DNA of 64,000 bases from Planctomycetia bacterium (GTDB taxonomy: Bacteria; Planctomycetota; Planctomycetia; Pirellulales; Thermoguttaceae). How positions within the stretch are numbered: the stretch's first letter is position 1; each line of letters begins with the position of its first letter. Under the pieces are notes generated by a model that worked only from the letters and a program-made list of their open reading frames with translations, did not search any database and was not told where the DNA came from. Positions 2,128 to 45,503 of this stretch are shown piece by piece. A program made the translations under genes and the position numbers. The stretch spans positions 21,556 through 85,555 of the forward strand of contig JAUNBG010000010.1 of NCBI GenBank assembly GCA_030527205.1, written 5' to 3'.

Positions 2128-3720
2128 TCAGAATTTCAGCCAACCGATGGAATGCAAAAACGTTATAATAATACAGATCGGCGACAAAAATCGAATAAAA
2201 ATCCCTAAGATAACGCCAAGAGTTAACGAATGAGAATCCCGAGTCGCATTGGGATCATCTTTAAGCCCCGCCAGAAGCGTAAAGAAATTAACATCCGAAA
2301 ACTGTTCGCCTCCTTTTCGAATCTCATCAATAGCATAACGAGTTCCCCAAACCCAACCGACAAACAATGAGATTCCCAGGCCGCCCAATGGCAAAAGATA
2401 ATTGCAACTGAAGTTATCGGCGGCATCGAAAAAGCTTGCGTCCGTTGAATTGAACAAGAAAAGAAAGATTTTCTCAAGCCAGGGGATTTTTTCCCAATCA
2501 AAAACGCTGATTGTACTGAGAACCCCCATTATGGAAACGAGGAGCGTAACGCCGAAAACAGCTGAATGACGTTTGAAATGAAATTCGTCAATGAGACAGG
2601 AAATACAAACTTCCAACAAACTGATTCCGCTTGTCAAAGCCGCAATGAATAACAAAAGAAAGAAAAGCGAACTCCAAAGCCAACCGACATTATCGCCAAT
2701 TGCATTAAAAGTAACGGGCATAATCTGAAAAACCAACCCTGGTCCAGCTTCAGGATTCATTTGCATTGCAAAAACGGCGGGAAAAATTGCCAAGCCCGCC
2801 ATTAAAGCGATCAAAGTATCGAGAAAGACAATATTCAAACTTGCGATATAAATATTTTTGGAACTATCGAGATAACTTCCGTAAGTCAACATAGCGCCCA
2901 TTCCCAGGCTCAAAGAGAAAAAAGCGTGTCCCAGCGCGATTAAAACGCCTTCTGAAGTCAATTTGCCAAAATCGGGCGAAAGAAGAAAGCGAACGCCTGC
3001 CGCAGCTCCGGGAAGCGTTAAACTTCGCATAATCAAAAGAATAAGCAACAACAGTAATAAAGGCAATAGAAATTTGCTTGCCAATTCAATTCCATTTTTA
3101 ATTCCAAACCAAACAACAAAGCCGCATAAAAGAGTAAACATAAGTTGATAAAAAACGGCAACAAAGGGATTTAAGGCAAAAGAGTTAAAAATATTCTGGG
3201 CTTCAACGGTTGACGAGATATTGAGTTGCTGCGTTATTCCTTTAATAAAATAAGCGAAAGTCCAACCGCCGACGGTTCCATAATAAGACATAATCACAAA
3301 AGGGGTCAAAACGCCGACAAGACCAATGCTTCCCCAGCCGAAATAAAAAGCGAAAGCCGCGAGAACGCCAAAAATGAGCCCCAAACCAAATTTGCCGAAA
3401 CAAAGAAGTCCCAAGGCGATCAAAAGAAAAACCGAGCCAATGGAACGAGTTGTCGACGTTCCATGCGGAGCGATTGCCAAAAAGGCGCCCAGGGGATTTT
3501 TTTGTGTCTTCCGGCCAAGCGTAATTTCGCAGATCATAATAGGAAGGCCGATTAAAATGATGCAAAAAAGATAAACGAGAACGAAAGCTCCGCCGCCATT
3601 CATTCCGGTTATATAAGGGAATTTCCAAATATTCCCCAAACCGATAGCCGATCCGGCAGCAGCAAGAACGAAACCGAGACTTCCCCCCCAATGTTCTCGA
3701 GTTGTTGAATCATTTTTCAT
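2128..3720 (-). CDS. Sodium-dependent transporter, SNF / neurotransmitter:sodium symporter family
   Basis: 530 aa and polytopic. The hallmark WGGSLGFVLAAAGSAIGLGNIWKFPY is at the N-terminus. Confidence 0.9.
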   Translation of the reverse strand: MKNDSTTREHWGGSLGFVLAAAGSAIGLGNIWKFPYITGMNGGGAFVLVYLFCIILIGLPIMICEITLGRKTQKNPLGAFLAIAPHGTSTTRSIGSVFLLIALGLLCFGKFGLGLIFGVLAAFAFYFGWGSIGLVGVLTPFVIMSYYGTVGGWTFAYFIKGITQQLNISSTVEAQNIFNSFALNPFVAVFYQLMFTLLCGFVVWFGIKNGIELASKFLLPLLLLLLILLIMRSLTLPGAAAGVRFLLSPDFGKLTSEGVLIALGHAFFSLSLGMGAMLTYGSYLDSSKNIYIASLNIVFLDTLIALMAGLAIFPAVFAMQMNPEAGPGLVFQIMPVTFNAIGDNVGWLWSSLFFLLLFIAALTSGISLLEVCISCLIDEFHFKRHSAVFGVTLLVSIMGVLSTISVFDWEKIPWLEKIFLFLFNSTDASFFDAADNFSCNYLLPLGGLGISLFVGWVWGTRYAIDEIRKGGEQFSDVNFFTLLAGLKDDPNATRDSHSLTLGVILGIFIRFLSPICIIITFLHSIGWLKF

Positions 3721-4505
3721 TGAAATGAATCCTTAAATATTTGAGTCATTCGGATATTTTATTGCGAAATCAAAGGACAAATTGATGAAAAAACTTGATT
3801 TTTCTGTTTGTTAATCCAACAAAGACAAAAAGAACAACCAAAAGGTCAAAAACTTGCGTCCGTATCAGCTTCGATAAAAATGTTGAAATTTTCAAATGGA
3901 GCTGCCGTTCTGCTGAAACAATCAGCAAAATCGTCGATTTCTGAAAATAAATCAGGCATTGAATACAAACGGCATTGCGATCAGAATTCAATAAATCAGC
4001 GCTCTTCAACCTCGCGTTTTGTCTGTTGAAAGCTCCTATTTGTTTGCCCTTCAAAATAATATTTTATTATAATTGAGGAACAAAATTAAGTCAACAAGAA
4101 GATAGTCAAAATAAGCAAAACAGGTTCTTTCGTTTTGAAAAAAGAGAATGAAATCTTTCCCTTTTCGGGGATTGTAAAACCGTTTTCGATTGTTATACTC
4201 AAAATAGAATTGTTGATCGTTCGGCATTTTTCCGAAGAAACAATTCCTTTTTTCCTTCAAGAACGGGAGAAATTTTCCCTGACATTGCTTAACACAGAAA
4301 AACAAAACTAAAATCATATCAACGACAGTTTGGGCGACAAGATTCGCTTTTTCATATTCCGTCAGTCATTTCAAACTTAAGAACAGCATTTTAAGCATAA
4401 GAACAGAAAGTTTGGCGATTTTCAATTGGTTTGAGTATCAAGAGCGCATTCTCTTTCAAGCAAAACTTCTCATTAACATCAACAAGAGATAAAAAAGGAA
4501 CAACG

Positions 4506-5930
4506 ATGTTCGAATATCGAATGGAACATGATACAATGGGCGAAGTTCGCCTTCCAAAACAGGTTTATTATGGCGCTCAGACCCAAAGGGCGATCGATAA
4601 CTTCCCGATTTCGGGACGTCGAATCGCGCCGGAGTTAATTCATGCGCTCGGATTAGTCAAATGGGCAGCGGCTCTGGCCAATCATCAATTGGGACAATTA
4701 ACCCGTAACGGTCGCAATCCGCTTCAAAGCAAGGAAATTGACGCATTGATTCAAGCGGCGTTTGAGGTTTCGGAAGGAATGTTGGACGACGAATTTCCGA
4801 TCGACGTTTATCAAACCGGTTCAGGAACTTCTTCAAATATGAACGCCAATGAAGTTATTTCGAATCGCGCGATTGAAATTGCGGGTTATGATCGTTTTGC
4901 CATTGAAAAACGAATTCATCCAAACGATCATGTCAACTGCGGTCAATCAACCAACGATATTTTTCCGACCGCGATTCATGTTGCTGCGGCTCTTGAAATC
5001 AAGAATCGTCTGATTCCAGCGATTCAAAAAGGAATTGACATTCTTCAAAAAAAAGCGGAAGATTGGAAAGATATTTTGAAGATCGGTCGAACGCATTTAG
5101 CCGACGCAACTCCCTTATCATTGGGGCAGGAAGTCAGCGGTTTAGGGCGTCAAATGGAACTTTCCCGCAAACGAGCGGAAATGGCTTTAGATCAGATTCT
5201 CGAACTTCCGGTCGGAGGAACCGCCGTTGGAACCGGCATTAATTCGCATACTCAATTTGGTTCCCGGGTCGCCCTGATCCTTGCAGAAAAAACGCAGATT
5301 CCGTTTCAAGAGACGTTCAATCATTTTGAAGCCAATGCTCAACGAGACGGTTTAGTCGCTTGTCATTCTTTATTAAAAACGATTGCGGTTTCCGTCTCAA
5401 GTATCGCGAACAATATCCGTTGGCTTTCTTCGGGACCTCGTTGCGGTTTTTATGAATTGAAACTCAAAGACCTTCAACCAGGAAGTTCGATTATGCCGGG
5501 CAAAGTCAATCCGGTTTTATGCGAAAGCGTTATGCAGCTTAGCGCCAAAGTTTTAGGCAATGACGCAACGATTTCCTATGCTGGAGCTTCCGGCGGTCAA
5601 TTTCAACTTAACATTATGATGCCGGTCATTGCCGATACGGTTTTAGATTCGATTCGCATTTTGAGCGGCGGAATTTCTCTCTTTGCGGAAAAATGTTTGT
5701 CAACAATGGAAGCGAATACGGAACAATGTCAAAAAGCCGTCGAACAGAGCCTTTCGATGGTTACCGGACTGAATCCATTTATCGGTTATGAAAAAGCGGC
5801 GGCTCTGGCCAAAGAAGCGTTCAAAACGAATAAAACGATTCGCGAACTCTGTCAGGAACAGAAAATTTTGCCGCCTGATGAGCTCGAAAAAGCGCTCAAT
5901 CCTTGGCGAATGACCAAACCGCTTTCTTAA
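4506..5930 (+). CDS. fumC: Class II fumarate hydratase
   Basis: The GSSIMPGKVNPVLCE signature and the N-terminal MEHDTMGEVRLP...YYGAQTQRA are present. The listed ORF starts at a TTG (4431). The ATG at 4506 has an AAGGAA upstream and gives a typical N-terminus. Confidence 0.9.
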   Translation: MFEYRMEHDTMGEVRLPKQVYYGAQTQRAIDNFPISGRRIAPELIHALGLVKWAAALANHQLGQLTRNGRNPLQSKEIDALIQAAFEVSEGMLDDEFPIDVYQTGSGTSSNMNANEVISNRAIEIAGYDRFAIEKRIHPNDHVNCGQSTNDIFPTAIHVAAALEIKNRLIPAIQKGIDILQKKAEDWKDILKIGRTHLADATPLSLGQEVSGLGRQMELSRKRAEMALDQILELPVGGTAVGTGINSHTQFGSRVALILAEKTQIPFQETFNHFEANAQRDGLVACHSLLKTIAVSVSSIANNIRWLSSGPRCGFYELKLKDLQPGSSIMPGKVNPVLCESVMQLSAKVLGNDATISYAGASGGQFQLNIMMPVIADTVLDSIRILSGGISLFAEKCLSTMEANTEQCQKAVEQSLSMVTGLNPFIGYEKAAALAKEAFKTNKTIRELCQEQKILPPDELEKALNPWRMTKPLS

Positions 5931-6110
5931 AATGATCCGCAAATATATCTTTTTTATGCGAAATGAACGAAAAAATACGAAAATGGAATAACCAGAAGCC
6001 AAATGATTTTCATAATTAAAGAAAAGTTCGTTTTTAAATGATTTCTTTTGAAAATCCAATCCAATTATAAAAAAACGAATAATCAGAAAACAAAATTTTT
6101 ATGAAATGAC

Positions 6111-7163
6111 TTATTCGGGGTTGAGAAATTTGTTGATCGATAAAATAATAACGGCGAGGCAAATAACAATCAAGGCAAGATACATCAACGATCGCGGTTT
6201 GCCTCGAACGCCTTTCCATTCGCCGCTCACAAATCCGACCAGTTGATTTCCCATAAGTTGTGTCGCCTGTTGAATACCAAATCCGATCGAAGCGCCGAGC
6301 GAGCCAAGATATATCATTCCCTGTCCCATACATAAAAGCGAAATAATGAATTGAAATCCCATCGCAATCCCAAAAATCGTTTCGTCCTTTCGAGCAAAAA
6401 AAGTTTTCCAGGTTTTCTTTTTGGTCAACATAAACATCGCAAAAAGAATGTTAACGATCGCTCCCCCGAAAACGGCAAAGGCCCAGGTTATACAGGTCGC
6501 TTCCAACCCTCCGACTCCTTGCGCTTTCGCCGCATCCTCAATATCCTGACTGTAAACAAAGCATAAGGAAAGCCCAGCCGAAAGAACTCCCGCGATACAG
6601 ACAAGAATAAAACCTTCTACAAAATTCCCTGACGCCTGAGCCTTTTTCTTTTGCTCATCTTGACTTCCAAGCTGTTTTTCCCGACCGACTCCCGCTGCTG
6701 TCGTTAAAATAACGCCCAAAATCAGAACAATCAGCGCTGACAAAATCGTCAGCCCCGCCGCAGACATTAAATCCGGAGCTTTTTGAAATATACCGCTCCC
6801 CTTGAGTATCAAAGGCAAAAGCATTCCAACCGACATCCCCAACCCCGACAACAGGGCGCCGGTCAATGCGGCTCCGATCTTGATAACACAGATAAAATAA
6901 AGAACATTGGCAATTCCCCAACCGACGGAAAATAAAGCAGAGACGGCAAGCGTCTTCAAGCCTGTCGACTTAATGATTAACGAAACGTCATCCAAACAAA
7001 AAAAGACAATACTCCAGGGAATTACAATAAGTCCAAGAAAAATATAAATAAGAAGCATCTGCTCCAATCGAAGATCTTTCGTCACTTTAAACGGCCAAGC
7101 GCCCGTTCCTGTTCCAAGACCCGCAAGAGTTACTAAAATCAAACCCCAAATCATTTGTTCCAT
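6111..7163 (-). CDS. rhaT: RhaT-family sugar:proton symporter (L-rhamnose transporter-like)
   Basis: Collinear similarity to E. coli RhaT blocks: GWGIANVLYF..IG, GVLSAGLSLCF, FGGAIVNILF, GEWKGVRGKPRS. The ATG at 7163 has an AAAGGA upstream. The substrate was not verified. Confidence 0.75.
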   Translation of the reverse strand: MEQMIWGLILVTLAGLGTGTGAWPFKVTKDLRLEQMLLIYIFLGLIVIPWSIVFFCLDDVSLIIKSTGLKTLAVSALFSVGWGIANVLYFICVIKIGAALTGALLSGLGMSVGMLLPLILKGSGIFQKAPDLMSAAGLTILSALIVLILGVILTTAAGVGREKQLGSQDEQKKKAQASGNFVEGFILVCIAGVLSAGLSLCFVYSQDIEDAAKAQGVGGLEATCITWAFAVFGGAIVNILFAMFMLTKKKTWKTFFARKDETIFGIAMGFQFIISLLCMGQGMIYLGSLGASIGFGIQQATQLMGNQLVGFVSGEWKGVRGKPRSLMYLALIVICLAVIILSINKFLNPE

Positions 7164-8682: not shown

Positions 8683-10425
8683 TTATTCGGCAAGAGACCT
8701 TGTATAACGTTCAATGCGAATATTACGATATGACGCTTCCCCAGCCGCGCCGCCATGAATTTGCAAGCCGATAACTCCGTCCAACGGGACATTCGGATCC
8801 GTTTCCTTATAATCGACCGTCAGAATATTGTTCAGATACAATTTGACGCGATTTCCCCAGCAAACAATTTTATATTGGTTCCAATCGTTCGGTTTCCAGA
8901 TTTTTTTAATCATTTCCGTATCGGTTTCTGCCAAAAAATCGTTCCGGCGAGATTCATCATAAAGCCGACCCCAATAAAGGCCATCCGAAGTCATATCCGC
9001 CTGATAACCGATCATTTCATTATGATCAGGAATTCGTTCCGAACGAAATTGGATGCCGGCGTTTCCCCCTTCGCCAACGATTTTGCATTCCAAAGTCAAT
9101 GTAAAATCCCGAAATCGTTCCGTCGAACAGAGAAACATGTTTTGAGGAACCAACGTTTCGAGAGAACCGCCAACAATGGCGTCATTTTCAATCCGAAACG
9201 TCTTTTCGGTATCCCCTTCCCAACCGTTGAACGTCTTGCCGTCAAACAGAAGTCGATCAGTCCGTTCATTTTCGATTTGGGAATAAAGTTCCGCAAGAAG
9301 CCTCTTTTCTTCTTCTCGTTCGACAAAAGGAACAATCGCGTCGGCCATTTGAATTTTCGTATCGGGAGTTGCCCCCATTTGTCGAACAAGTCGCAAATAA
9401 CCGCGAACCGCTCGAATTCGATATTTTTGAAGGGAATGCTTTTCCGCAATCAAGATCAAAAACGGAGCTGCGTCCATATTGATCCATTCTCCGAGAACGC
9501 GCGTCGCCGCATCGATAACCCGTTCCTCTTTTTCCCCTGCTGATCGGGCAATCTGCTCAAGAGCGTCGTTGTTTCCAATCTGAACAAACAAGGAAATCAA
9601 AAAACATTTCTGTTCCGGGGACGATCTGGCAAATGCTTTTTTAAGAACGTTAACGGCAGCTGACGGTTCAAATGTCCGTTTGCAAAGCAGTTCCAGCGAA
9701 TCGGCCAACGGCCCCGGAACATTTTCCGGAGAATACGATTCATAAACGTTCAATAAAAGTTCGATTGATTTCGCATCTGGCGAAACAACTTGCGACCAAA
9801 GATTCAATTTCTCAATATCCGACTCATCGGTCAAAGACGTTTTCAAAATCGTCGCAATATTAATATTGGAAATGTCGATCGGTTTGACCGGTTCGACCGG
9901 TTCGACAGCCTCGAAAACAAACGGTTCAACCGGAACGGCATCCAATTTGGCAACAGCAGATCGCGCCGCCTCGGCAACCGTCTTATCGTCAGATTCGGTT
10001 AGTTCAACCAATTTTTCCCGACTAGCTTCATCCTTCATTTCTCCAAGCGACAGAATCACGCCAACAAGAGAAAGCCCCGACAAGGAATCCAAAGATTCGC
10101 GAAGCGCTTTTCGCCCCGCTTCTCCCGGAATATTGATCAGAGCGGTTCGCGCTTGAGTTCCGAGTCGCTCATCGGCAAGCAACGGAATAATCTCCTTGAC
10201 CGAATCCTCCGTTCCAAACCAGGTCAGCCAATTCAACGCATTGGCCATTTCATGAAGCTGTTCGTCAGTCAGATCCGCGTTTTGAGTATAAACGGAAAGA
10301 GTTTCCCTTGCTTTTTGAACCTTGGCGGCAGGGGACTCGTTCGCCTGAACAATCGCAATTGCCATCAAAATCAACAAAACGAGCAAAATCGAAACTCGAA
10401 CCAACTTTTTTTCGATCATCGTCAT
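8683..10425 (-). CDS. Secreted HEAT-repeat protein with a C-terminal DUF1080 (3-keto-disaccharide hydrolase-like) domain
   Basis: N-terminal signal/TM segment (LVRVSILLVLLILMAIAIVQA). The C-terminal 200 aa carry LFDGKTFNGWEG...FRIENDAIVGG...GNAGIQFRS...GYQADM...GLQIHGG...YRNIRIE, typical of DUF1080. The ATG at 10425 has an AAGGGA upstream; the listed TTG at 10455 is less likely. Confidence 0.75.
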   Translation of the reverse strand: MTMIEKKLVRVSILLVLLILMAIAIVQANESPAAKVQKARETLSVYTQNADLTDEQLHEMANALNWLTWFGTEDSVKEIIPLLADERLGTQARTALINIPGEAGRKALRESLDSLSGLSLVGVILSLGEMKDEASREKLVELTESDDKTVAEAARSAVAKLDAVPVEPFVFEAVEPVEPVKPIDISNINIATILKTSLTDESDIEKLNLWSQVVSPDAKSIELLLNVYESYSPENVPGPLADSLELLCKRTFEPSAAVNVLKKAFARSSPEQKCFLISLFVQIGNNDALEQIARSAGEKEERVIDAATRVLGEWINMDAAPFLILIAEKHSLQKYRIRAVRGYLRLVRQMGATPDTKIQMADAIVPFVEREEEKRLLAELYSQIENERTDRLLFDGKTFNGWEGDTEKTFRIENDAIVGGSLETLVPQNMFLCSTERFRDFTLTLECKIVGEGGNAGIQFRSERIPDHNEMIGYQADMTSDGLYWGRLYDESRRNDFLAETDTEMIKKIWKPNDWNQYKIVCWGNRVKLYLNNILTVDYKETDPNVPLDGVIGLQIHGGAAGEASYRNIRIERYTRSLAE

Positions 10426-10442
10426 TATAATATTTCCCTTTC

Positions 10443-11744
10443 TTAAACCGTCCAAGGTTCCCGCAAAGCGCGTTTTCGCATACGATTCGCCTGATCGTCG
10501 TTGAGGAACAGTTCCCGTTCCGGATCAAATTCAAGTTCCCGTTGGAGCATCCAGGAAAGCGCCGCCGCATGACAAGTTACATGCGACGATCGAATAACGA
10601 TTTGATTGCAGGCGGGCAAATCCCGAGTCTTGACGCAATCGAGAAAATTCCGAACATGATTCCGAGGACATTCGCCCACAGAAAGTCTGTTATCCGCGTC
10701 TTTCCGAATGATTTTATTGATCGAAGGACGCAAGGAATCAGGAGAAACAACGATATTGCCGCTGTCGCCGACTTCAACCCAACCTTCTGTTCCTTCAAAA
10801 CGAACGGGACATGTGCCCAGCCCGAGCCAATTGTCGGGACGCATTACAAGTTGAACGCCGTCGGCATAAGTTGCAAAAACGCGTTTTCCCTCCGACCAGA
10901 ACCGAACAGGAGTTGTCCCGTCTTTTCCAAGAGCGAATTGACAAAGATCGACTGTATGCGCCCCCCAGTCAAGCAGTCGGGCGCCGGAATCAAAATCATA
11001 ATGAGCCCGCCAATCGCCCAAAATATAACGTTTGTTATAAGGGCGCCAGGGAGCGGGGCCAAGCCAAAGGTCCCAATCGATTTCATCGCGATCTGGAAGT
11101 TCCTCTGCGGCATACCAATCGGTTCGATAACAAAGCGAATAGATCGAAGCATGAACCGTATGAATTTTTCCAAGTTTTCCGCTTCGCGCCAATTCGCAGG
11201 CAAATCGGCAATTTTCAACGTTACGACGTTGCGTTCCCCCCTGAAAAACCGTCTTGTTTCGATTCATCGTTTCGGCAAGAGAACGACACAGATCCATTGT
11301 CAAAGCGCAGGGTTTTTCGCTGTAAACGTCTTTTCCTGCCTGCGAAGCATAAATCGACGCAATGGCATGCCAGCGGTCGCCAGTTGCAATAAGAACGGCA
11401 TCGATATCGGAACGTTCCAACATTTCGCGGAAATCGCGATACATGTCCGTATCGGTTGTTTCGTATTTGGAATCTCCCATTTGTTTAACCGCTTCCCGAC
11501 GATCCCGACGAACATCGCTTATCGCCAGAAGTCGAACATCCGGTTCATTCAAAAAATAACCCAAAACATAACCGCCGCGATGATTGATACCAATTCCGCC
11601 CAATGTAATTTGATTGGAGGGGGAAACAGCCCCATCTTTTCCCAAAACATATCCGGGAATAATCAAGGGAGCAGCAACGGTTCCCATTGCCGCGAAAGAA
11701 GTCGCCAAAAAAGATCGACGGGATAATTTGTTCAAATGATTCAT
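10443..11744 (-). CDS. Gfo/Idh/MocA-family oxidoreductase with a twin-arginine (Tat) signal
   Basis: 433 aa. SRRSFLATSFAAMG Tat motif, GGIGINHRG Rossmann, and EKP in the catalytic region. Paralog of 35964..37265. Confidence 0.85.
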   Translation of the reverse strand: MNHLNKLSRRSFLATSFAAMGTVAAPLIIPGYVLGKDGAVSPSNQITLGGIGINHRGGYVLGYFLNEPDVRLLAISDVRRDRREAVKQMGDSKYETTDTDMYRDFREMLERSDIDAVLIATGDRWHAIASIYASQAGKDVYSEKPCALTMDLCRSLAETMNRNKTVFQGGTQRRNVENCRFACELARSGKLGKIHTVHASIYSLCYRTDWYAAEELPDRDEIDWDLWLGPAPWRPYNKRYILGDWRAHYDFDSGARLLDWGAHTVDLCQFALGKDGTTPVRFWSEGKRVFATYADGVQLVMRPDNWLGLGTCPVRFEGTEGWVEVGDSGNIVVSPDSLRPSINKIIRKDADNRLSVGECPRNHVRNFLDCVKTRDLPACNQIVIRSSHVTCHAAALSWMLQRELEFDPERELFLNDDQANRMRKRALREPWTV

Positions 11745-11927
11745 TGGGTCAACCCTTTATAACTCAAACTGAAAAATACGGTTTGAGTTAATCATAAATA
11801 ATATTGGTAACGGCGTTTTCCTCGAAATCCCAAACCGGTTTACGGAGAGCGAACAATCATAATTGATTTGGAAAAAAGGATAGTCGCAATACAATTAACG
11901 CAAAGAACAAAAATCAGTAAATAAGGA

Positions 11928-12890
11928 TTATTGTTTTTTCTCAATGCAATCGCCAACTTTGATATTCATCGCCCATTGAATTGAAGAAAAACCGGGAAGA
12001 ACGCAGACCTGTCCATATTTTTTCGCAACATCGGGGCGATCATAACAAATCGAACAAGGCTCGATAATGATGTTGTAAAGTCCGTCCCAACCGTCCTCAT
12101 TGATCAAAATGCCCAAATAAGGAACGTTTTTCGTTTCAAATTGAACTTCAATTCGATTTCCGTCCGGATATTCAAGTTTACAGAATCCCTGATCAAGCGG
12201 TTTTGTAAAATAAAGTTTTTCAAATCCTTTAACGCTGGCATTTCGAGCAATATCGGCGCGATAAGGATTGCCCGTTGCGTCTTTTAAAAACGGCCATTGA
12301 TGAACATCGCCGAACTTTGAACTCCCTGCGGAAAGAACGCTTGTTGCTTCCTTGCAATCTTCGGGAAGCACAATTTTCGTTCCTTCCTGAAGGTTGATCA
12401 TCATATGCCCCGCCCAAAGATATTCAAAGTCAAAAGCGCTATGATTTAACAATTCATATTGATAATGAAGCGTTTCCGGATTGATCAGTTGAACTCTTTT
12501 TTTGATCGAGTAAGGAAAACGAACGCCGCCAGTCGAAAATTCAACGGAAGGGATATCAGAGTTCTCCGAATCAAAAGTTGCCTTCCAGGGAAGAGACCAG
12601 AGTTCGCCATGATCGGCCAATTTTGTCCCTTTCCAGGGAAATGATTCATAAAAACATTCGTCAATAGTCGGAAACATATCGTCAAAACCGCTGCATTCCG
12701 CTTCGACATAAAGAGCATCAAACGGTTGTTCCTTGTAAATCGGGTCGGGACGCTGAACAAAAAATTCATAACCGGTCGATTTATCGATCAAGGAAGCCAA
12801 TTTGCCGCCTGGATTCGGAAGCAGTTCCGCGCGAATTCGGTCGCTTTCCAAGACGATACTTTCTTTATTTTTATAATTCGTTGAACTCAT
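11928..12890 (-). CDS. Aldose 1-epimerase (galactose mutarotase)-like protein
   Basis: The pattern ELLPNPGGKLASL...FPTIDE...ADHGELWSLPW resembles mutarotase-fold proteins. The ATG at 12890 has an AGGAGA upstream. The longer listed ORF (to 13022) would run into the repeat element. Confidence 0.45.
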   Translation of the reverse strand: MSSTNYKNKESIVLESDRIRAELLPNPGGKLASLIDKSTGYEFFVQRPDPIYKEQPFDALYVEAECSGFDDMFPTIDECFYESFPWKGTKLADHGELWSLPWKATFDSENSDIPSVEFSTGGVRFPYSIKKRVQLINPETLHYQYELLNHSAFDFEYLWAGHMMINLQEGTKIVLPEDCKEATSVLSAGSSKFGDVHQWPFLKDATGNPYRADIARNASVKGFEKLYFTKPLDQGFCKLEYPDGNRIEVQFETKNVPYLGILINEDGWDGLYNIIIEPCSICYDRPDVAKKYGQVCVLPGFSSIQWAMNIKVGDCIEKKQ

Positions 12891-12994
12891 TTTTCGTCTC
12901 CTGAAGATTTTAAACTGATGACTGTCAATCAGTTTTGGATTTGCGATAACGTTTATATTCAGATTTATTGAAAATCTTTGAAATTTATATTCAC

Positions 12995-13101
12995 AGGAAG
13001 TTCTAAAAACAGTTTTTTGCAATAAACTTCATTTGTGAACGGCACAAAAACCGGTTCATGCGGACAAGACGTCCGTTCTCAGCGGGTTTTTAGAACTTCC
13101 T
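12995..13101 (+). repeat. MITE-like palindromic intergenic element, copy 1 (forward)
   Basis: AGGAAGTTCTAAAAAC ... GCGGACAAGACGTCCG ... GTTTTTAGAACTTCCT. Confidence 0.9.
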
Positions 13102-13162
13102 TTATCAATTAAACAGCGTCAAACGGTCTTTGAAACAATTCTCTTTTTAAATCGGCTTGAGT

Positions 13163-15247
13163 TTAAAAGGAAGCGTTTTCGCAGAGAATTAAAATACATT
13201 CCCAAGGATTGATTTTTGGAACAACAAATCGCCGATAAGGACCGTCAACGGAATCTGCTTGAACGATAACCGGTTCACAGGAACGATCATAAAAGGTTAT
13301 GAAATCAGAAGTTGTCTGAATCATAACGACCATATTTTCAGCGGAATCAAACGTTGCGTTCAAAGCGACCATTGCCGTTTTTCCCGATTCATCGGGCTGT
13401 CGAACCCAAAGATTAACGCGGTCGAACGACTCAATATAAGCGGGGAGTCGATCTTTGGAAAGCCAGCGCATGATATTTCGAATCTGCGACTGTTTGGGAC
13501 GACTATAAAAATAGGACCAAGGATAATATCCATTAACGCAAACGCGACCGCCCAACCGATTCTCAAAAACGCCAAGAATGGTTTCTGCAGTTTCTTTCGA
13601 TGAATAATCAATCGCAGAAGAAAGCGTTTCGACGCCGGGTTGAGTCTTTTTCAAACTAATCATTGGTTCCCGCCAAAAGGATTGGCGTTTATCTCGAGTT
13701 CGACCGCCAAAAGTTCCATTAAGGAAATGATCCTGATATTTTTCAATTCCGTCAACGCTGATTATGTCGCCATATTCCATTCCCGTTAAATCATTGAGCG
13801 CATAGGATTGAGGATCGTTCAACAACCCGAGCGCATCATTATCGGTATAAACGCCCTCTTTGAAATAAATTTGAATTTCTTCTCGACTTTTTTGAGAAAC
13901 AAAAGCGCGAGACAGGAGAAAAACGTTGCTGTTTCCCTTTGCATAAGCGACAGGAATTCCCGCTTCGCTAACGCCAGACGTTAAATATTGACTCGGAACT
14001 CGCAGCGGAAAATCAGCGTCGGTTCGTTCCCAAAGCGGATGAACGCCAACTAACGGTTGCCGTCCAAGATGTTGAACCAATAAATCATAAAAAGGGCGCC
14101 ATTGGCTCGCGGTTCGAATCATCGGTTCATTATCGTCAAGCGGTTCTTCATTCATCGTTAAGACATTAAAAGCGGCGCCTGTGCAGCCGGTCGCAATATA
14201 AACGGCAGCTTCTAGCGCTGTTACATTTTTGGCCTTTTCAAGCGGTTGATAAGGGAAATTCTCAATTTCCGACTGAATCATCTCAACCAGATTCGGCAAG
14301 AGAGAAACTTGACGACCGATTTCATGCGCTTTGCCGACCAATGAATAAATGCCGGAATGTTCATAAAAGCCGCCGCCTGGACGCCAATAAACGGGTTGAT
14401 CTTGATTGGGGCCGGCAAGCGTTTTGGCCCAACGCTCAAAATCATAACCTTCCTCATAACGTTCTCCGGTCATAAACCCAAGCGGCAGACCGGGACGTTT
14501 CTCATGAACAACTTCTTCAATCAGGGCAAATAAATTGTCGATTGAATCGCTGTTAAATTGATGTATTTTCGCTCGAATTTCCTGTTCATTAATATGAGTC
14601 AACAAATAATCTCGCGATATTTCCTGATCGAATTTTTCGGACATCAATTGCAAACAATAGTCGCAAAAACAGATGGAACCCGCTTCGCCTGTTGAATTGA
14701 GCATATGACCAACTCGAACATCGTCATCAATCCAAATATAATCGGGATCGGCTTCGGCTAAGGCGGCATAAATGCGTCGAATTCGCTCTCGAAAGATTTC
14801 CTGATTCATACAGAGCGTTCCTTCGGCAGTTTTTCCGTCGATTGTTATGCCTCGGGGACATTCTTGACCGATCGAATTCGGGAGATCTTCCGAATGATGC
14901 CCCAATGTACACAAAAGATTAATTCCGGCTCGATAACCCCGTTTCTTGCAAACGGCAATCCGTTCTTTCAAAAGAACGCAACGTTTGACAAGTTCGTCAT
15001 CGGGAATGGGCGAATGCGTTGTTTGCGTAAAAAAAGTAATTTCGTCCGTTGCGCCGGGATATTTGTCGAATAAATCCAGAAGCTGTTCAAATCTCGCGTC
15101 ATTCGACCAGATATTGATGCCGATTCGGAAGGTTATGGCGGCCTTTTTTCCGATCGTTTTTGAACTTTCGTCAGAATAAAGAAGCGAATATGTTGATGAC
15201 AACAAGAATAAAACGAATAAACCTGTCCCAATAATAAAATGTTTCAT
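13163..15247 (-). CDS. Secreted hypothetical protein (694 aa); no family recognised
   Basis: Long ORF with coding-like composition and an N-terminal signal (MKHFIIGTGLFVLFLLSS). The ATG at 15247 has a GGAGAA upstream. It is embedded among glycoside hydrolase genes. Confidence 0.6.
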   Translation of the reverse strand: MKHFIIGTGLFVLFLLSSTYSLLYSDESSKTIGKKAAITFRIGINIWSNDARFEQLLDLFDKYPGATDEITFFTQTTHSPIPDDELVKRCVLLKERIAVCKKRGYRAGINLLCTLGHHSEDLPNSIGQECPRGITIDGKTAEGTLCMNQEIFRERIRRIYAALAEADPDYIWIDDDVRVGHMLNSTGEAGSICFCDYCLQLMSEKFDQEISRDYLLTHINEQEIRAKIHQFNSDSIDNLFALIEEVVHEKRPGLPLGFMTGERYEEGYDFERWAKTLAGPNQDQPVYWRPGGGFYEHSGIYSLVGKAHEIGRQVSLLPNLVEMIQSEIENFPYQPLEKAKNVTALEAAVYIATGCTGAAFNVLTMNEEPLDDNEPMIRTASQWRPFYDLLVQHLGRQPLVGVHPLWERTDADFPLRVPSQYLTSGVSEAGIPVAYAKGNSNVFLLSRAFVSQKSREEIQIYFKEGVYTDNDALGLLNDPQSYALNDLTGMEYGDIISVDGIEKYQDHFLNGTFGGRTRDKRQSFWREPMISLKKTQPGVETLSSAIDYSSKETAETILGVFENRLGGRVCVNGYYPWSYFYSRPKQSQIRNIMRWLSKDRLPAYIESFDRVNLWVRQPDESGKTAMVALNATFDSAENMVVMIQTTSDFITFYDRSCEPVIVQADSVDGPYRRFVVPKINPWECILILCENASF

Positions 15248-41171: not shown

Positions 41172-42038
41172 ATGAAAATTTCATTTTTTACAGTTTTGAT
41201 CTTTTGTTTTGCCGGAACGTTCTGCTCAACCAATGCCGTTTGGGCTGAATCTCCGACTTGCCCAATCGACGGAGATTGGGAGTTTATTTCCGATTTTAGC
41301 GACGAATTCAATGGCGAATCGTTGGATAACGAAAAATGGTTCGACTTCAATCCGGCTTGGATTGGACGCAAACCGGCGCTCTTTTCAAGAGACAATGTTG
41401 CCGTTGCCAACGGAATGCTTCAATTAACAACGCGCGAAATGCCTGCCGAATGGGAAACGCTTGAAAATAACGTTCGCGGCTTCCATACATATACAACCGC
41501 GATTATCAAAAGCAAAAAACGCGTTTTATATGGTTATTTTGAGACGCGATGTCGTCCGATGGCCTCTGCGGCCAGCAGCGCGTTCTGGTTTTATGACCCT
41601 CTTGATCCGCCGGAAAAATATAAAGCGGGAAACTGCTCGGAAGAAATTGACGTTTTTGAACTTTTCGGCAAACATCCGACAATGGAAAATACGCTTTATA
41701 CAACGGTTCATTGTCAGGATACGCCTTATGTCGAATCTATTGTTCGCTTGAATTTGAAATCCAAGGGATCAAAATGGAAGTCCCCCTTCAAATTCGTCGA
41801 TGATTATCATGTTTATGCGTTGCTCTGGACGCCCGAAATCATGCGCTGGTTCATTGACGGACAAGAAGTTTGGAGCCTCGAAAATACGCAACATCATCGA
41901 CCGTTGCATATGATGTTCGATACAGAAGTCTTTGAAACCTGGGCAGGTCTCCCAAATTCAGAAGATTTGCCGAGCACATTTTACGTCGATTATGTCCGCT
42001 GCTGGCAATTGAAATCAGACAATAATTCCGCGCAATAA
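41172..42038 (+). CDS. Secreted glycoside hydrolase family 16
   Basis: AAGGAG RBS and a signal peptide. DEFNGESLDNEKW and the catalytic EEIDVFE (ExDxxE) motif. Confidence 0.85.
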   Translation: MKISFFTVLIFCFAGTFCSTNAVWAESPTCPIDGDWEFISDFSDEFNGESLDNEKWFDFNPAWIGRKPALFSRDNVAVANGMLQLTTREMPAEWETLENNVRGFHTYTTAIIKSKKRVLYGYFETRCRPMASAASSAFWFYDPLDPPEKYKAGNCSEEIDVFELFGKHPTMENTLYTTVHCQDTPYVESIVRLNLKSKGSKWKSPFKFVDDYHVYALLWTPEIMRWFIDGQEVWSLENTQHHRPLHMMFDTEVFETWAGLPNSEDLPSTFYVDYVRCWQLKSDNNSAQ

Positions 42039-42080
42039 CCAATAATTCCGCGCATTTGCCGATATTTCCGCGCAATAACC
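42021..42080. repeat. Three tandem 20-bp direct repeats (AATAATTCCGCGCAATAACC-like)
   Basis: Units 42021-42040, 42041-42060 and 42061-42080, with a period of exactly 20. They span the GH16 stop codon and the convergent intergenic gap. Confidence 0.8.
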
Positions 42081-42107
42081 AACTTATTATTTCAAAACAG
42101 GGCGGGT

Positions 42108-42593
42108 TCATTTTAAGAGCAGACGATACAGCTTGAACAGAATTCGCCTTGGCAAGAAAAGATAATATCGAACAGGAAAAAGGAATCCCCAAACCCGACA
42201 ATAGAGTCGATAACCTTTGGATTGAGAACAATCGATCATTTGATTCCGTCGATAAAAAGCTCGAACAACTCCAATGATCTGGTTTCGATAAATGGGATAC
42301 TCCTTAATCCATTGAGCATCTCCGCAAAGAACGAATTCGTTCTCATTTTTAACGGCAATAATTCGATGCAGAACAAACTGCCCGTTGGAACGTCGATAGA
42401 AAACCAAATCGTCCTTTTTTAATAAATCAAGCGGACGAACAAGAACGACCTCATCCCTTTGGTCGCGAAGCATTGGATACATGCTGTTTCCGCGCGGCGA
42501 AAATTTGATTTCACTGCCGTTTTTCAAACACTCTTCAATCAACGGAAACATTTCTTCCATTGAAACATTTTTCTGAAGGTTTGTCTGTTGCAT
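42108..42593 (-). CDS. S24/S26-family (LexA/signal-peptidase-like) serine peptidase
   Basis: PRGNSMYPMLRDQRDEVVLV (catalytic GxSM motif), LVFYRR..GQFVLHRII. The start is ambiguous (ATG 42593 or 42560; the listed TTG is at 42617). Confidence 0.6.
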   Translation of the reverse strand: MQQTNLQKNVSMEEMFPLIEECLKNGSEIKFSPRGNSMYPMLRDQRDEVVLVRPLDLLKKDDLVFYRRSNGQFVLHRIIAVKNENEFVLCGDAQWIKEYPIYRNQIIGVVRAFYRRNQMIDCSQSKGYRLYCRVWGFLFPVRYYLFLPRRILFKLYRLLLK

Positions 42594-42682
42594 AAATTGA
42601 AAGGGATCATTTTCCAAAAAATATTGCCGTTCAACCGATCAAAAAAGTCATTCCGGCAAAAACATCTTTTATTTGCGAACCA

Positions 42683-42949
42683 TTATTTTATCAAAAGATT
42701 ATTCTCTTCCAGGATTTTTAGAAAAGCTTCAATATCATTTTGAGCTGTTGTTTCATCAACATCATATTCTTTGAGTAAAGCGGAAACAAGCTCGTCTTTG
42801 GTTTGATCCGTTTCAAGTTGTTTCCATAAAAAAACGCCGGTTTCATTAAGCGTAATCATTCCAGAAAAATCAACCGTTGCTTTTCCCGTTGGAACAACGA
42901 CAAAACTTCCGGCTACATTTCGAAGAATAAAGTTTTCCTTGATCTTCAT
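42683..42949 (-). CDS. PqqD-family protein (RiPP recognition element-like peptide chaperone)
   Basis: 88 aa. ...LNETGVFLWKQL....T.DELVSALLKEYDVDETTAQNDIEAFLKILEENNLL is the typical PqqD/RRE pattern. Its ATG overlaps the upstream gene's TAA (TAATG). Confidence 0.7.
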   Translation of the reverse strand: MKIKENFILRNVAGSFVVVPTGKATVDFSGMITLNETGVFLWKQLETDQTKDELVSALLKEYDVDETTAQNDIEAFLKILEENNLLIK

Positions 42950-43698
42950 TATAATTCCTGTTGTTGTATTTCCTGTTGTTTTTGATTCAATGTTTGATAG
43001 GCAAGTTCGACGGCTTCCTGACTGATTGTACAGCCCATTTTAAAAATGACCATTCTGCTCAAAAGTTGATCCAAAAGCGAAAGCAAAACGTTCATTTGAT
43101 CTTGAGTCAAGGCAAAAAGCGTTTGATTAAAAATAAGATAGATCGCTTCGGAAACAGAAATCGATTGAATCCAGTTTTCAGGCGATTGCTCCAGAAACAC
43201 AATTCCTTTGAGCGGAACCTTGATATCGAGATTTTTATCGCTCTTGCCCGACCAGGGAGTTCCAAAAACATAAAATCGATTATCAATCAAACGAATGGCC
43301 GGTTTATCGTCGTTAATGATTATCGCTTTTTCCGTCCCAAAATATTGTTGCCATTGATCCGTATGAGTCGATTTTCCGGTTCCGCTGGGAGCCGAAAAAA
43401 GATAAGCGTTGTCTTCATACGCAATAGCGGAAGCATGAAGCATAAAACCATTATAACGAAGCAATTTGTAATAAAAAATGCTTCCTGTTTCGATATAATC
43501 GCATTCATCAAACGTTAGATGAGGATTCTCTCGAAACATTTTCTCCAATTTTTCTTTTGAGGGTTTAATAATTATATCTGGCGAAAAATCGTTGAAGCGA
43601 GAATCAGGCGGAATTTCATATATTTTTCCCTGACGAATCACTCGTTCACTTTTCGACTCCAAATGAACAATTAAGTCGGCAATTTTATATTTTTTCAC
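42949..43698 (-). CDS. HPr-kinase-like P-loop protein (HprK-related kinase family)
   Basis: 249 aa with a GTG start. LHASAIAYEDNAYLFSAPSGTGKSTHTDQW then IINDDKP...FGTPWSGKS resembles the HprK C-terminal kinase fold found next to PqqD proteins. Confidence 0.55.
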   Translation of the reverse strand: MKKYKIADLIVHLESKSERVIRQGKIYEIPPDSRFNDFSPDIIIKPSKEKLEKMFRENPHLTFDECDYIETGSIFYYKLLRYNGFMLHASAIAYEDNAYLFSAPSGTGKSTHTDQWQQYFGTEKAIIINDDKPAIRLIDNRFYVFGTPWSGKSDKNLDIKVPLKGIVFLEQSPENWIQSISVSEAIYLIFNQTLFALTQDQMNVLLSLLDQLLSRMVIFKMGCTISQEAVELAYQTLNQKQQEIQQQEL

Positions 43699-44035
43699 TA
43701 TAATAACATTCTATTACATAAAACAAAATATGCAAAAAACTATTCTAAAAACAATTCATTTAAAAAAAACGTTTTTAACAATCATACTCGAAAAACCTTG
43801 AAAAACAAGGGTTCCAAAGAAAGATTTTTAACAATTGGAATTTGTCGATGTTATTAAAATGATCAAAATGCCTGTCGCATTTAAGCAGGCAATAAAATAA
43901 TCGCATTGAGGCTTGCGTCCCCCAAACCAAAAGGTTTTAACTCGCTTTGAGCCCTTTATTTTAAACAAAATGCTTGTTTTGTTGAAATAAAATTCTGCGT
44001 TATTGAAAATTGTCGTTTCTTTTGTTATAAATAAA

Positions 44036-44144
44036 AGAAGTCCTGAAACCCCGCTTTTTAACAAACGCATTTGGATAAAGTTGTTCAAACCTGATTCTTG
44101 CGGACAAGACGTCCGCTTTCCTTAGGGGGGTTTTAGAATTTTCT
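44036..44144 (+). repeat. MITE-like palindromic intergenic element, copy 6 (forward, degenerate TIRs)
   Basis: AGAAGTCCTGAAAC ... TAACAAACGCATTTGGATAAAGTTGTTCAAAC ... GCGGACAAGACGTCCGC ... GGTTTTAGAATTTTCT. Confidence 0.85.
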
Positions 44145-44219
44145 ATCAATGTATTGAAATGATCGGTTGATTTCAATATAAAATTTTTGAAAAATTACAA
44201 AATTGTCTGAAAGGAAGAA

Positions 44220-45503
44220 ATGAAACGAAAACTTGCCTTGATCATTATGTTGTTGGGATTCTTTTTTGTTCTGAATAATGATTCGGAAGCACAAAACTGG
44301 TATCGCGGGAACCTTCATATGCATTCCTATTGGAGCGACGGCGTTGCCTTTCCGGAAGAAGCCATTTCGCTCTATCGGGACGAAGGTTATCAATTTGTTT
44401 GTCTTTCCGATCATAATCTTGCTCAAAACAATCCCGAGCGTTTTAATGAAATCAAGAATCGCCCGAGTCAAGAACTTATCGAACGATTTCAAAAGCGTTA
44501 TCCAGATTATCCTCTTGAGATTAAAGAAGAGGACGACAAAAAGTTTGTTCGACTCAAAACCTTTCAAGAACTTAAAAAACAACTTGAAAGTCCAGGCGAA
44601 TTTCTTTTGATTCCCGGTTTTGAATTGAGCGGCGGCGCCAAAAATGGCGTTCAAGTTCATATGAATCTGATTAATACAGAAGAAGGTCGAGCGTTTCCGT
44701 CTTTAGAAACAGAACATGAAACAATGGCCAAATGCCTTGAGTATACAACAGAAATATTCAAAGGACGCGAAAGCTCAACTTTTTTAATGCTGGATCATCC
44801 GGACTGGATTTATTTCGATATTGACCCGGGGATGATCATTGATAAAAAAGCGTTTCAGTTTTTCGAAGTCATTAATTGCGGACCGGTCTATGCGCCGCAT
44901 CCAAACGCCTGGACAACGGACAAATTCTGGGACGTTGTCAATGCGTTTCGAGCAGAAAAAGGCAATGAACCCCTTTATGGAATCGCGTCGGACGATACTC
45001 ATGATTATGTTCCGTTTTATCAACCGGCAGAAAAAGGAGAGCTCAATGGCGGAGGCGGTTGGGTTATGGTTCGAGCTCAAGAATTGACAACCGAAGCAAT
45101 CATTCAAGCGATGAAGGCGGGCGATTTTTATGCTTCGACTGGCGTCTTTCTTGACGATATTCAATTTAATCCGGAAACAAAGACTTTGTCGGTTAAGGTC
45201 AAGGCCGAAGAAAATGTCGATTATTCCATTTCTTTTATCGGAACGAAAAAAGGGTTTGATCAATCGGTTGCAACCGTTGAAGATCCAGCCAAGGATCGCA
45301 AGCCAGCGCGAACTTTGTCGGTTTATTCTGACGAAATCGGCGAAACTTTTGTTACGGTTCAGGGAACCGAAGCAACGTTTAAAATGAGCAATGATATTCT
45401 TTATGTTCGCGCAAAAATCGTTGCCAATAAAGAACCGCATCGAAAAATCAAAGGCAAACCAGATCGTCCAACCGCTTGGACGCAACCGATTTTCGCGCGA
45501 TAA
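44220..45503 (+). CDS. Secreted PHP-domain (CehA/McbA-like) metal-dependent phosphoesterase
   Basis: AAGGAAG RBS and a signal peptide. GNLHMHSYWSDG...FVCLSDHN PHP motif, and a later SDDTHD. Confidence 0.7.
   Translation: MKRKLALIIMLLGFFFVLNNDSEAQNWYRGNLHMHSYWSDGVAFPEEAISLYRDEGYQFVCLSDHNLAQNNPERFNEIKNRPSQELIERFQKRYPDYPLEIKEEDDKKFVRLKTFQELKKQLESPGEFLLIPGFELSGGAKNGVQVHMNLINTEEGRAFPSLETEHETMAKCLEYTTEIFKGRESSTFLMLDHPDWIYFDIDPGMIIDKKAFQFFEVINCGPVYAPHPNAWTTDKFWDVVNAFRAEKGNEPLYGIASDDTHDYVPFYQPAEKGELNGGGGWVMVRAQELTTEAIIQAMKAGDFYASTGVFLDDIQFNPETKTLSVKVKAEENVDYSISFIGTKKGFDQSVATVEDPAKDRKPARTLSVYSDEIGETFVTVQGTEATFKMSNDILYVRAKIVANKEPHRKIKGKPDRPTAWTQPIFAR

Follow-up and report, generated by a model that had tools for sequence, protein, structure and literature searches.

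A cassette of three co-oriented genes on the minus strand of contig JAUNBG010000010.1 (Planctomycetia bacterium, assembly GCA_030527205.1) was examined within a stretch of 64 kb, hereafter the window. Its products are an HprK-like kinase, a PqqD-family recognition element for peptides that are made on the ribosome and modified after translation (RiPPs), and a serine peptidase of the signal peptidase kind, and there is a good probability that they are homologues of lppK, lppB and lppS forming a partial cassette of the type that makes linear polyphosphorylated peptides (LPPs). The cassette most likely represents a Clostridial subtype of these clusters in a Planctomycetia genome, with lppA, lppD and lppN either not acquired or lost later.

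The production of LPPs by lppA-K-B-S-D-N clusters has been shown experimentally for the cluster of Paenibacillus alginolyticus DSM5050 expressed in Bacillus subtilis (Popov et al., Nat Commun 2026;17:6633, PMC13381572). There, the RiPP recognition element (RRE) binds the YxxP motif of a leader whose consensus is YxxPxVLxHQxIxFET/xxS (the slash separating leader and core), LppK puts one to four phosphates on Ser3 of the core, and LppS, a SipW-like Ser/His/Asp signal peptidase, takes off the 27-residue leader, for which it needs LppB and its own residues S29, H68 and D93, the unphosphorylated precursor being a poor substrate. No effect of LppN was detectable, and the final product and its biological role are not yet known. 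The same study labels the core genes with PqqD, NTP_transf_5 and TIGR02228, reports precursors of up to 200 aa and, for certain Bacilli, LPP precursors encoded elsewhere in the genome, and describes about 126 Bacilli clusters, located in capsule loci; LPPs were said to be restricted to Bacillota (PMC13381572). The initial annotation of the window regarded the trio as an uncharacterised class; it corresponds to the K-B-S core of this family. The genes, together with the spacer upstream of them, are:

42949 to 43698, minus strand: K, lppK-like kinase, 249 aa, GTG start, MDO4586559.1 (NCBI label "hypothetical")
42683 to 42949, minus strand: D, lppB-like RRE of the PqqD family, 88 aa, MDO4586558.1
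42108 to 42593, minus strand: P, lppS-like leader peptidase, 161 aa, MDO4586557.1 (NCBI label "S24/S26 family peptidase")
43699 to 44219, minus strand: AT-rich spacer 5' of K, at the position of lppA in full cassettes, 521 nt, holding a 43-codon open reading frame (ORF)

Coordinates and strand of the three ORFs agree with the initial annotation, as does the translational coupling of K and D, visible in the TAATG overlap in which base 42949 is common to the stop of one and the start of the other. The three reading frames are intact, with no loss of any residue invariant in their families. D lies directly upstream of P as a discrete PqqD-type RRE; the start of P was placed at the ATG at 42593 and not at the TTG at 42617, following the NCBI choice and the alignment of homologues, and the gap between D and P is 89 nt. 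A weak promoter-like site (TTTGCA-17-TAGAAT, 43736-43708) and a terminator-like hairpin inside the 43-codon ORF (43810-43796) were not enriched over shuffled sequences, so that the evidence for an operon is gene spacing alone, and an Rfam scan of 41800-44400 gave no match.

The family and fold proposed for each protein in the initial annotation proved right, by profile for D and by AlphaFold2 (AF2) modelling and Foldseek for K and P. D passes the cut-off of PF05402 (74 bits against 23.4, E 1.2e-20). Its best NCBIfam matches are the PqqD chaperones of lasso peptides, below their cut-offs (38.6 against 70), and its matches to PDB sequences include TbiB1, the best one (E 2.4e-5), and the LppB chain 9x8z_B (E 1.5e-4). 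Against the sequences of Supplementary Data 1 of PMC13381572, D shares 49% identity with RREs of sequence similarity network (SSN) cluster 4, 41% with cluster 9 and 30-34% with the LppB proteins of cluster 1, which, as pairwise identities and not as a tree, place it closer to cluster 4 than to cluster-1 LppB. Clusters 4 (Dehalobacter, Anaerocolumna) and 9 (Ruminococcus) were filed in that paper as "RRE others", with precursors "not determined", and the accession of the window is absent from its 2019-era dataset.

P is a homologue of LppS (BLASTP, 26% identity, E 1e-12) and shares 35% identity with the corresponding proteins of SSN cluster 4 and 38% with those of cluster 9. In the alignment of its homologues G35, S37, M38, P40, H76, R77, G91 and D92 are invariant (motifs GxS37MxP, LH76R and GD92), and S37, H76 and D92 fall in register with S29, H68 and D93 of LppS. 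Judged from these residues, the predicted active site is a Ser/His/Asp one of the SipW/archaeal/ER type (S26B-like) and not the Ser/Lys dyad of LexA; the LexA-type peptidase put forward initially does not hold, because an invariant His (LHR) occupies the general-base position and PF00717 is matched below threshold (17.5 bits against 23.3). The best NCBIfam match of P is TIGR02228 (26.9 against a cut-off of 51.85), the model used for signal peptidase I (SpI) in PMC13381572. The AF2 model of P (mean confidence, pLDDT, 90.6; helix at 126-160) retrieves SpsB signal peptidase, the LexA C-terminal domain, lambda cI and SipA in Foldseek, all of the S24/S26 fold. The protein consists of this fold with an N-terminal helix and a long, basic and hydrophobic C-terminal helix, and has neither an N-terminal membrane anchor nor a DNA-binding domain. 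P resembles the SipW/archaeal/ER signal peptidases (S26B; TIGR02228) in its GxSMxP, HR and GD(N) motifs and its S24/S26 beta-barrel, but it differs from them in the missing anchor, in its score below the TIGR02228 cut-off and in that an RRE would deliver the substrate, as it does in LPP systems. A SipW-like peptidase is joined to NTP_transf_5 within one ORF of about 540-554 aa in each of two other loci (L021, 2427-4049; L076, 4563-6227), the peptidase motifs being N-terminal and PF14907 lying at residues 183-422; such fusions support the view that leader removal and the LppN step are functionally linked. SSN clusters 6 and 8 of the published dataset, left unanalysed there, contain SpI-RRE pairs from anammox Planctomycetota (Brocadia, Kuenenia) and SpI-ABC (ATP-binding cassette) fusions from Bacteroidota; the proteins of the window show no greater closeness to the anammox sequences (22-27% for P).

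Direct PDB sequence searches with K and P returned only noise, so that structure prediction was needed for both. K consists of a P-loop domain of the HprK/PEPCK fold preceded by an N-terminal domain of about 80 aa; its AF2 model (pLDDT 94.8, built on 28 homologues) matches HprK/P (1kkl, E 1.6e-5) and PEP carboxykinase at the top of the Foldseek results. The invariant motifs of the family are LH88, G106-T-G-K-S-T-H112, N129-D-D-K-P133 and G146-T-P-W-S-G-K152. The likeness of K to LppK is thus one of fold and gene context, not of direct sequence alignment. Homologues of K carry a precomputed Pfam assignment, PF27840 "ScmC", yet the local Pfam scan of the window K reported a weak AAA_29 match and not PF27840, which indicates that the profile annotation of this protein depends on the Pfam release. 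The family is large (5,004 matches in the protein collection of metagenomes, with relatives in at least 596 species-representative genomes), and the closest relatives of K are Clostridia, at 54-58% identity (P0003, P0004 and P0009).

The pairing of an HprK-fold P-loop protein with a PqqD-family protein, and the "ScmC" label on the homologues, recall the HPr-rel-A and SynChlorMet systems, the first of which had been invoked in the initial annotation. Membership in both was rejected, the equivalog scores being far below the cut-offs: for HPr-rel-A, TIGR04352 (HprK_rel_A) scores 16.2 bits against 200 and TIGR04353 (PqqD_rel_X) 18.7 against 35, and for SynChlorMet, TIGR04249 (ScmC) scores 35.8 against 125 and TIGR04248 (ScmD) 26.8 against 100. 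K has only sub-threshold profile matches, those to ScmC and HprK_rel_A. There is also no HprK-related kinase B, and no radical SAM/SPASM neighbour was found among the ORFs around the trio. A literature search on ScmC and SynChlorMet returned only unrelated acronyms.

Synteny adds to the protein evidence. K, D and P stand side by side in dozens of independent genomes, a linkage far beyond chance. In the nearest relatives the gene order is a small ORF of 37-52 aa, K, the PqqD gene, the S24-like peptidase gene, an ABC exporter (ABC_membrane plus ABC_tran) and NTP_transf_5 (PF14907, confirmed by profile). Clustering of the small ORFs around 56 cassettes gave one conserved peptide family, which iterated profile searches extended to 12 distinct loci, two more being added by direct translation of L087 and L088; precursor genes are present in the sister cassettes L001, L010, L017, L087 and L088. 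The consensus is MKK.Y..PE[IL]E[IV]..F..ED[IV]I[TA].S, behind which comes a variable tail, acidic and rich in Gly, and a search of ten of these peptides against NCBIfam found no model. Counted as in lasso leaders, the family has Tyr at -17, Ile at -2 and a conserved Ser at position 3 of the core. Lasso-type B1/PqqD proteins recognise their leaders by the element Y..P.[IL], and the layout is the same as in BsfA, whose Ser3 is phosphorylated in a B1-dependent manner by the HprK-like BsfK of Bradymonas (PMC10368454); the conserved Ser of the family matches the phospho-acceptor position of both BsfA and LppA.

The window shares with the LPP clusters a kinase, an RRE and an SpI-like peptidase of the same types and in the same order, a Ser/His/Asp triad that aligns with that of LppS and the lack of a macrolactam cyclase or B2 gene between or beside the trio, and its sister cassettes add an MsbA-like ABC protein, NTP_transf_5 and a YxxP-leader precursor with a core Ser3. 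The published models (PqqD, NTP_transf_5 and TIGR02228) match the window proteins together with the neighbouring genes of their relatives. It differs from those clusters in having no lppA, lppD or lppN, in its low identity to the validated proteins and in its place on a Clostridial branch (that of SSN clusters 4 and 9) which the paper did not analyse. The leader of this branch reads YxxPE[IL]E..F..EDII/[TA]xS instead of the published consensus, and the host is a planctomycete, whereas the LPPs of the paper belong to Bacillota.

In the full Clostridial cassettes the lppA-like gene adjoins a gene whose product is large and secreted and contains Flg_new/Flg_new_2 (Listeria-Bacteroides repeat), Big_2 or SLH domains, these genes being located as follows:

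L001: 5094-7694
L017: 6697-8439 and 8711-9985
L033: 6547-9762
L087: 1-2480 and 7240-9771
L088: 7231-9747

Neighbours of similar size in L030, L080 and L083 gave no Pfam match. The secreted or surface proteins next to lppA-like genes recall the capsule-locus setting of the Bacilli clusters (PMC13381572), which hints at a cell-surface role. One contig, L087, carries two tandem LPP-type modules (2535-5039 and 9801-14366): the first consists of lppA, a 137-aa ORF, K, B and S, followed by a 100-aa ORF resembling a truncated ABC membrane domain, and the second is a complete A-K-B-S-D-N set with a LytTR response regulator and histidine kinases downstream.

The genes that would complete the cassette were searched for in the window. 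With the hidden Markov model of the leader, the 521-nt spacer 5' of K scored at best -4.1 bits, compared with a maximum of 3.0 for shuffled sequences and 35-46 for the positive controls from sister cassettes, and no precursor was retrieved with it in the window. The 43-codon ORF (43775-43906), which had been suggested as a candidate precursor and does occupy the position syntenic to lppA, was therefore rejected, since it has no match to the leader profile and the whole spacer scores like shuffles. Across the 64 kb, tblastn (word size 2, E up to 10) gave no significant match for three ABC, three NTP-transferase, a Flg_new-protein and the precursor queries, and the leader expression [YFW]..P.[ILVMF] returned only noise; degenerate remnants of lppA, lppD, lppN or a Flg_new gene in the window were rejected on these grounds. 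The absence of an ABC exporter noted at the outset thus stands for the entire window as far as tblastn can tell, and between or beside the trio there is no gene of cyclase size or of B2 type, as had also been stated, the ORFs within about 5 kb having been scanned or being too small and the window not having been scanned exhaustively with cyclase and B2 profiles. Past the ends of the window no lpp genes were found in L089 and L090, which cover part of the remaining contig and include about 8 kb beyond one end. Because precursor, exporter and NTP-transferase all went undetected, the pathway at the window stays putative.

We surveyed the architecture around 49 K genes with adequate flanks. Full K-D-P-ABC-NTP cassettes made up 13 of them, seven with an lppA-like gene within 10 kb; eight were trio-only, none with such a gene in that distance (one-sided hypergeometric p ~0.015); three consisted of K-D and 17 of K alone. 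One K clade has neither PqqD nor peptidase partner (L012, L015 and L028, with K at 184-894, 5543-6250 and 9992-10705), its conserved housekeeping context being thymidylate synthase, dihydrofolate reductase, K, a short-chain dehydrogenase/reductase (SDR), uracil-DNA glycosylase and PolA. In a neighbour-joining (NJ) tree of K, which carries no support values, the architectures map onto clades, and the trio-only cassettes of Clostridia fall into deep, conserved ones. The window K is sister to a clade made up only of full cassettes (L001, L003, L007, L010, L087 and L088), with L017 and L026 outside. This grouping indicates that the trio state of the window is derived, and it contradicts, for this lineage, the original description of the trio as a minimal system. 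The trio with its 100-aa ABC fragment beside an intact module in L087 is likely an intermediate of such truncation.

The contig itself is planctomycetal, because RpoD, encoded 11 kb from the cassette, is matched best, among named relatives, by those of Planctomycetia and Thermoguttaceae (52-64% identity) and because the window encodes Lnt (above cut-off), an enzyme characteristic of diderm bacteria rather than Bacillota. The GC contents of K (0.372) and D (0.345) are lower than that of the long ORFs of the window (0.4385 +/- 0.029). As the three proteins also have a Clostridial affinity, horizontal acquisition is the simplest reading, and it is likely that part of a cluster was acquired in this way. 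A MAG (metagenome-assembled genome) labelled "uncultured planctomycete" (rumen RUG14274, 59% GC; L022, 9953-11538) has the genes in the order K-P-D, their products sharing 42-45% identity with those of the window; its trio would be an independent acquisition or a binning artefact.

The bind, phosphorylate and cleave logic proposed in the initial annotation is the mechanism demonstrated for the homologous lpp system (PMC13381572), and it may be carried over to the window by analogy. As in Paenibacillus, the PqqD protein would bind the YxxP motif of a precursor leader, the HprK-like kinase, aided by the RRE, would phosphorylate the core once or several times at Ser3, and the RRE would present the junction to the Ser37/His76/Asp92 peptidase, which would take off the leader. 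Since a serine signal-peptidase-like enzyme would remove the leader and no cyclase lies beside the trio, a linear product is to be expected. Either the substrate is encoded at another place in this genome, or the trio is idle at present.

Several points weigh against a partial LPP-type cassette. The identity to the validated proteins is low (26% for P, 30-34% for D), the closer Clostridial RREs of clusters 4 and 9 were filed outside the LPP RREs, and K is tied to LppK by fold and context with no direct sequence comparison. Neither in the 64 kb nor in about 8 kb adjoining one end could a precursor, exporter or NTP-transferase be detected. Besides, the 17 solitary K genes, several of them among housekeeping genes (thyA-folA, ung-polA), show that the PF27840 kinase family is not exclusively linked to RiPPs; the tree of K lacks support values, and the GC deviation is mild, which makes it suggestive at most as evidence of transfer. 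A tenable, if not likely, alternative is that the trio is an inert remnant, a transferred fragment of an LPP cluster left without substrate, exporter and NTP-transferase, functionless and heading to decay. The absence of lppA, lppD and lppN and of their remnants, the derived trio state of a K that groups among full cassettes, the truncation apparently under way in L087, the 89 nt that part D from P, genes that overlap in homologues, and a GC content lower than that of host genes would all fit such decay. However, the three ORFs are intact with all invariant residues, the gene absence applies to the window and about 8 kb and not to the rest of the MAG, and trio-only cassettes are deep, conserved and common enough (8/49) to indicate that a trio can persist under selection. 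A different and rather doubtful possibility is that the trio is a stable K-B-S module which acts in trans, has no need of a dedicated exporter or NTP-transferase and takes as substrates the products of genes at other sites, perhaps secreted or surface proteins of greater length that bear a YxxP-type leader at the N-terminus. In that case it could be a phosphorylate-and-clip unit rather than a broken cluster, stable in several lineages of gut and rumen Clostridia and acquired separately by Planctomycetes, a proposal that we consider improbable to the same degree. The lack of lppA-like genes near trio-only loci (0 of 8, against 7 of 13 full cassettes with one), the depth of their clades, the occurrence of the trio-only protein cluster P0108 in 46 index blocks (23 of its contigs were read) and the long or distantly encoded precursors of some Bacilli (PMC13381572) speak for it, but no candidate substrate was found, the window K lies outside the trio-only clades, and the trio-only loci are known from sequence alone.

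Another reading is that the trio tailors a lasso peptide that carries phosphate, as in the paeninodin, pseudomycoidin or Bsf systems, with cyclase, B2 and precursor elsewhere in the genome. There are real likenesses to these clusters (paeninodin PadeK; pseudomycoidin PsmK/PsmN; BsfK/B1/B2/N), which also pair an HprK-like kinase with a discrete PqqD/B1 RRE, have the YxxPxL leader motif at -17 to -12 and, in Bsf, Ile at -2 and the Ser3 acceptor, and are accompanied by NTP_transf_5 and an ABC exporter. B1-dependent HprK-like kinases do phosphorylate lasso precursors (PMC10368454, PMC7533575), and the best NCBIfam and PDB matches of D are of lasso type. But the window type has neither the lasso cyclase C nor the cysteine protease B2, no cyclase or B2 occurs in the homologous cassettes inspected gene by gene (the lppA-bearing ones plus L001-L006, L087 and L088), a serine peptidase occupies the B2 position, the associated precursors have Tyr or Phe where paeninodin leaders typically have Trp, and the lasso PqqD scores of D are far under their cut-offs, all of which makes a lasso origin highly improbable. 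Even less credit can be given to the view that P is a routine housekeeping signal peptidase or a LexA-like protein, placed by chance beside an unrelated kinase and PqqD-like gene. The 89 nt between D and P and the sub-threshold S24/S26 profile matches would agree with such a coincidence, but it is effectively refuted by the conservation of the three-gene linkage across many genomes, and the missing anchor and DNA-binding domain, the fusions of peptidase and NTP_transf_5 in L021 and L076 and the homology to LppS also stand against it. Lasso tailoring and a coincidental housekeeping peptidase are therefore both effectively excluded, and a partial LPP-type cassette of Clostridial affinity is the interpretation that we favour.

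The immediate neighbours of the cassette are a GH16 (glycoside hydrolase family 16) gene and a gene for a 427-aa protein, both on the opposite strand, and another neighbouring ORF is glycoside-hydrolase-like, with weak GH39/GH5 matches. In the convergent gap between the stop of GH16 (42038) and that of the peptidase (42108) sit tandem repeats: three copies of ATAATTCCGCGCAATAACCAA at 42022-42082, with a period of 20 nt and 81-100% identity, the unit being found nowhere else in the window. The 427-aa ORF (44220-45503, plus strand), divergent from the cassette, is secreted and has no Pfam match at E <= 1e-5. Its N-terminus, GNLHMHSYWSDG, may resemble a PHP-type metal-binding motif.

Taken by itself, the window is of modest significance, since it holds an incomplete version of a known system and shows no substrate. 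Nevertheless, it places LPP-type maturation genes on a planctomycetal contig, which would extend the range of the system past Bacillota, at least for the maturation genes. Its relatives also uncover a larger Clostridial branch that was not analysed in the published work, with the same six-gene logic, a leader motif of its own and reduced forms (trio, K-D and K alone). This branch offers new precursor sequences and a natural experiment on which genes of the cluster are dispensable. If the trio did act in trans, LPP-type chemistry would be extended beyond dedicated small precursors as well as beyond Bacillota.

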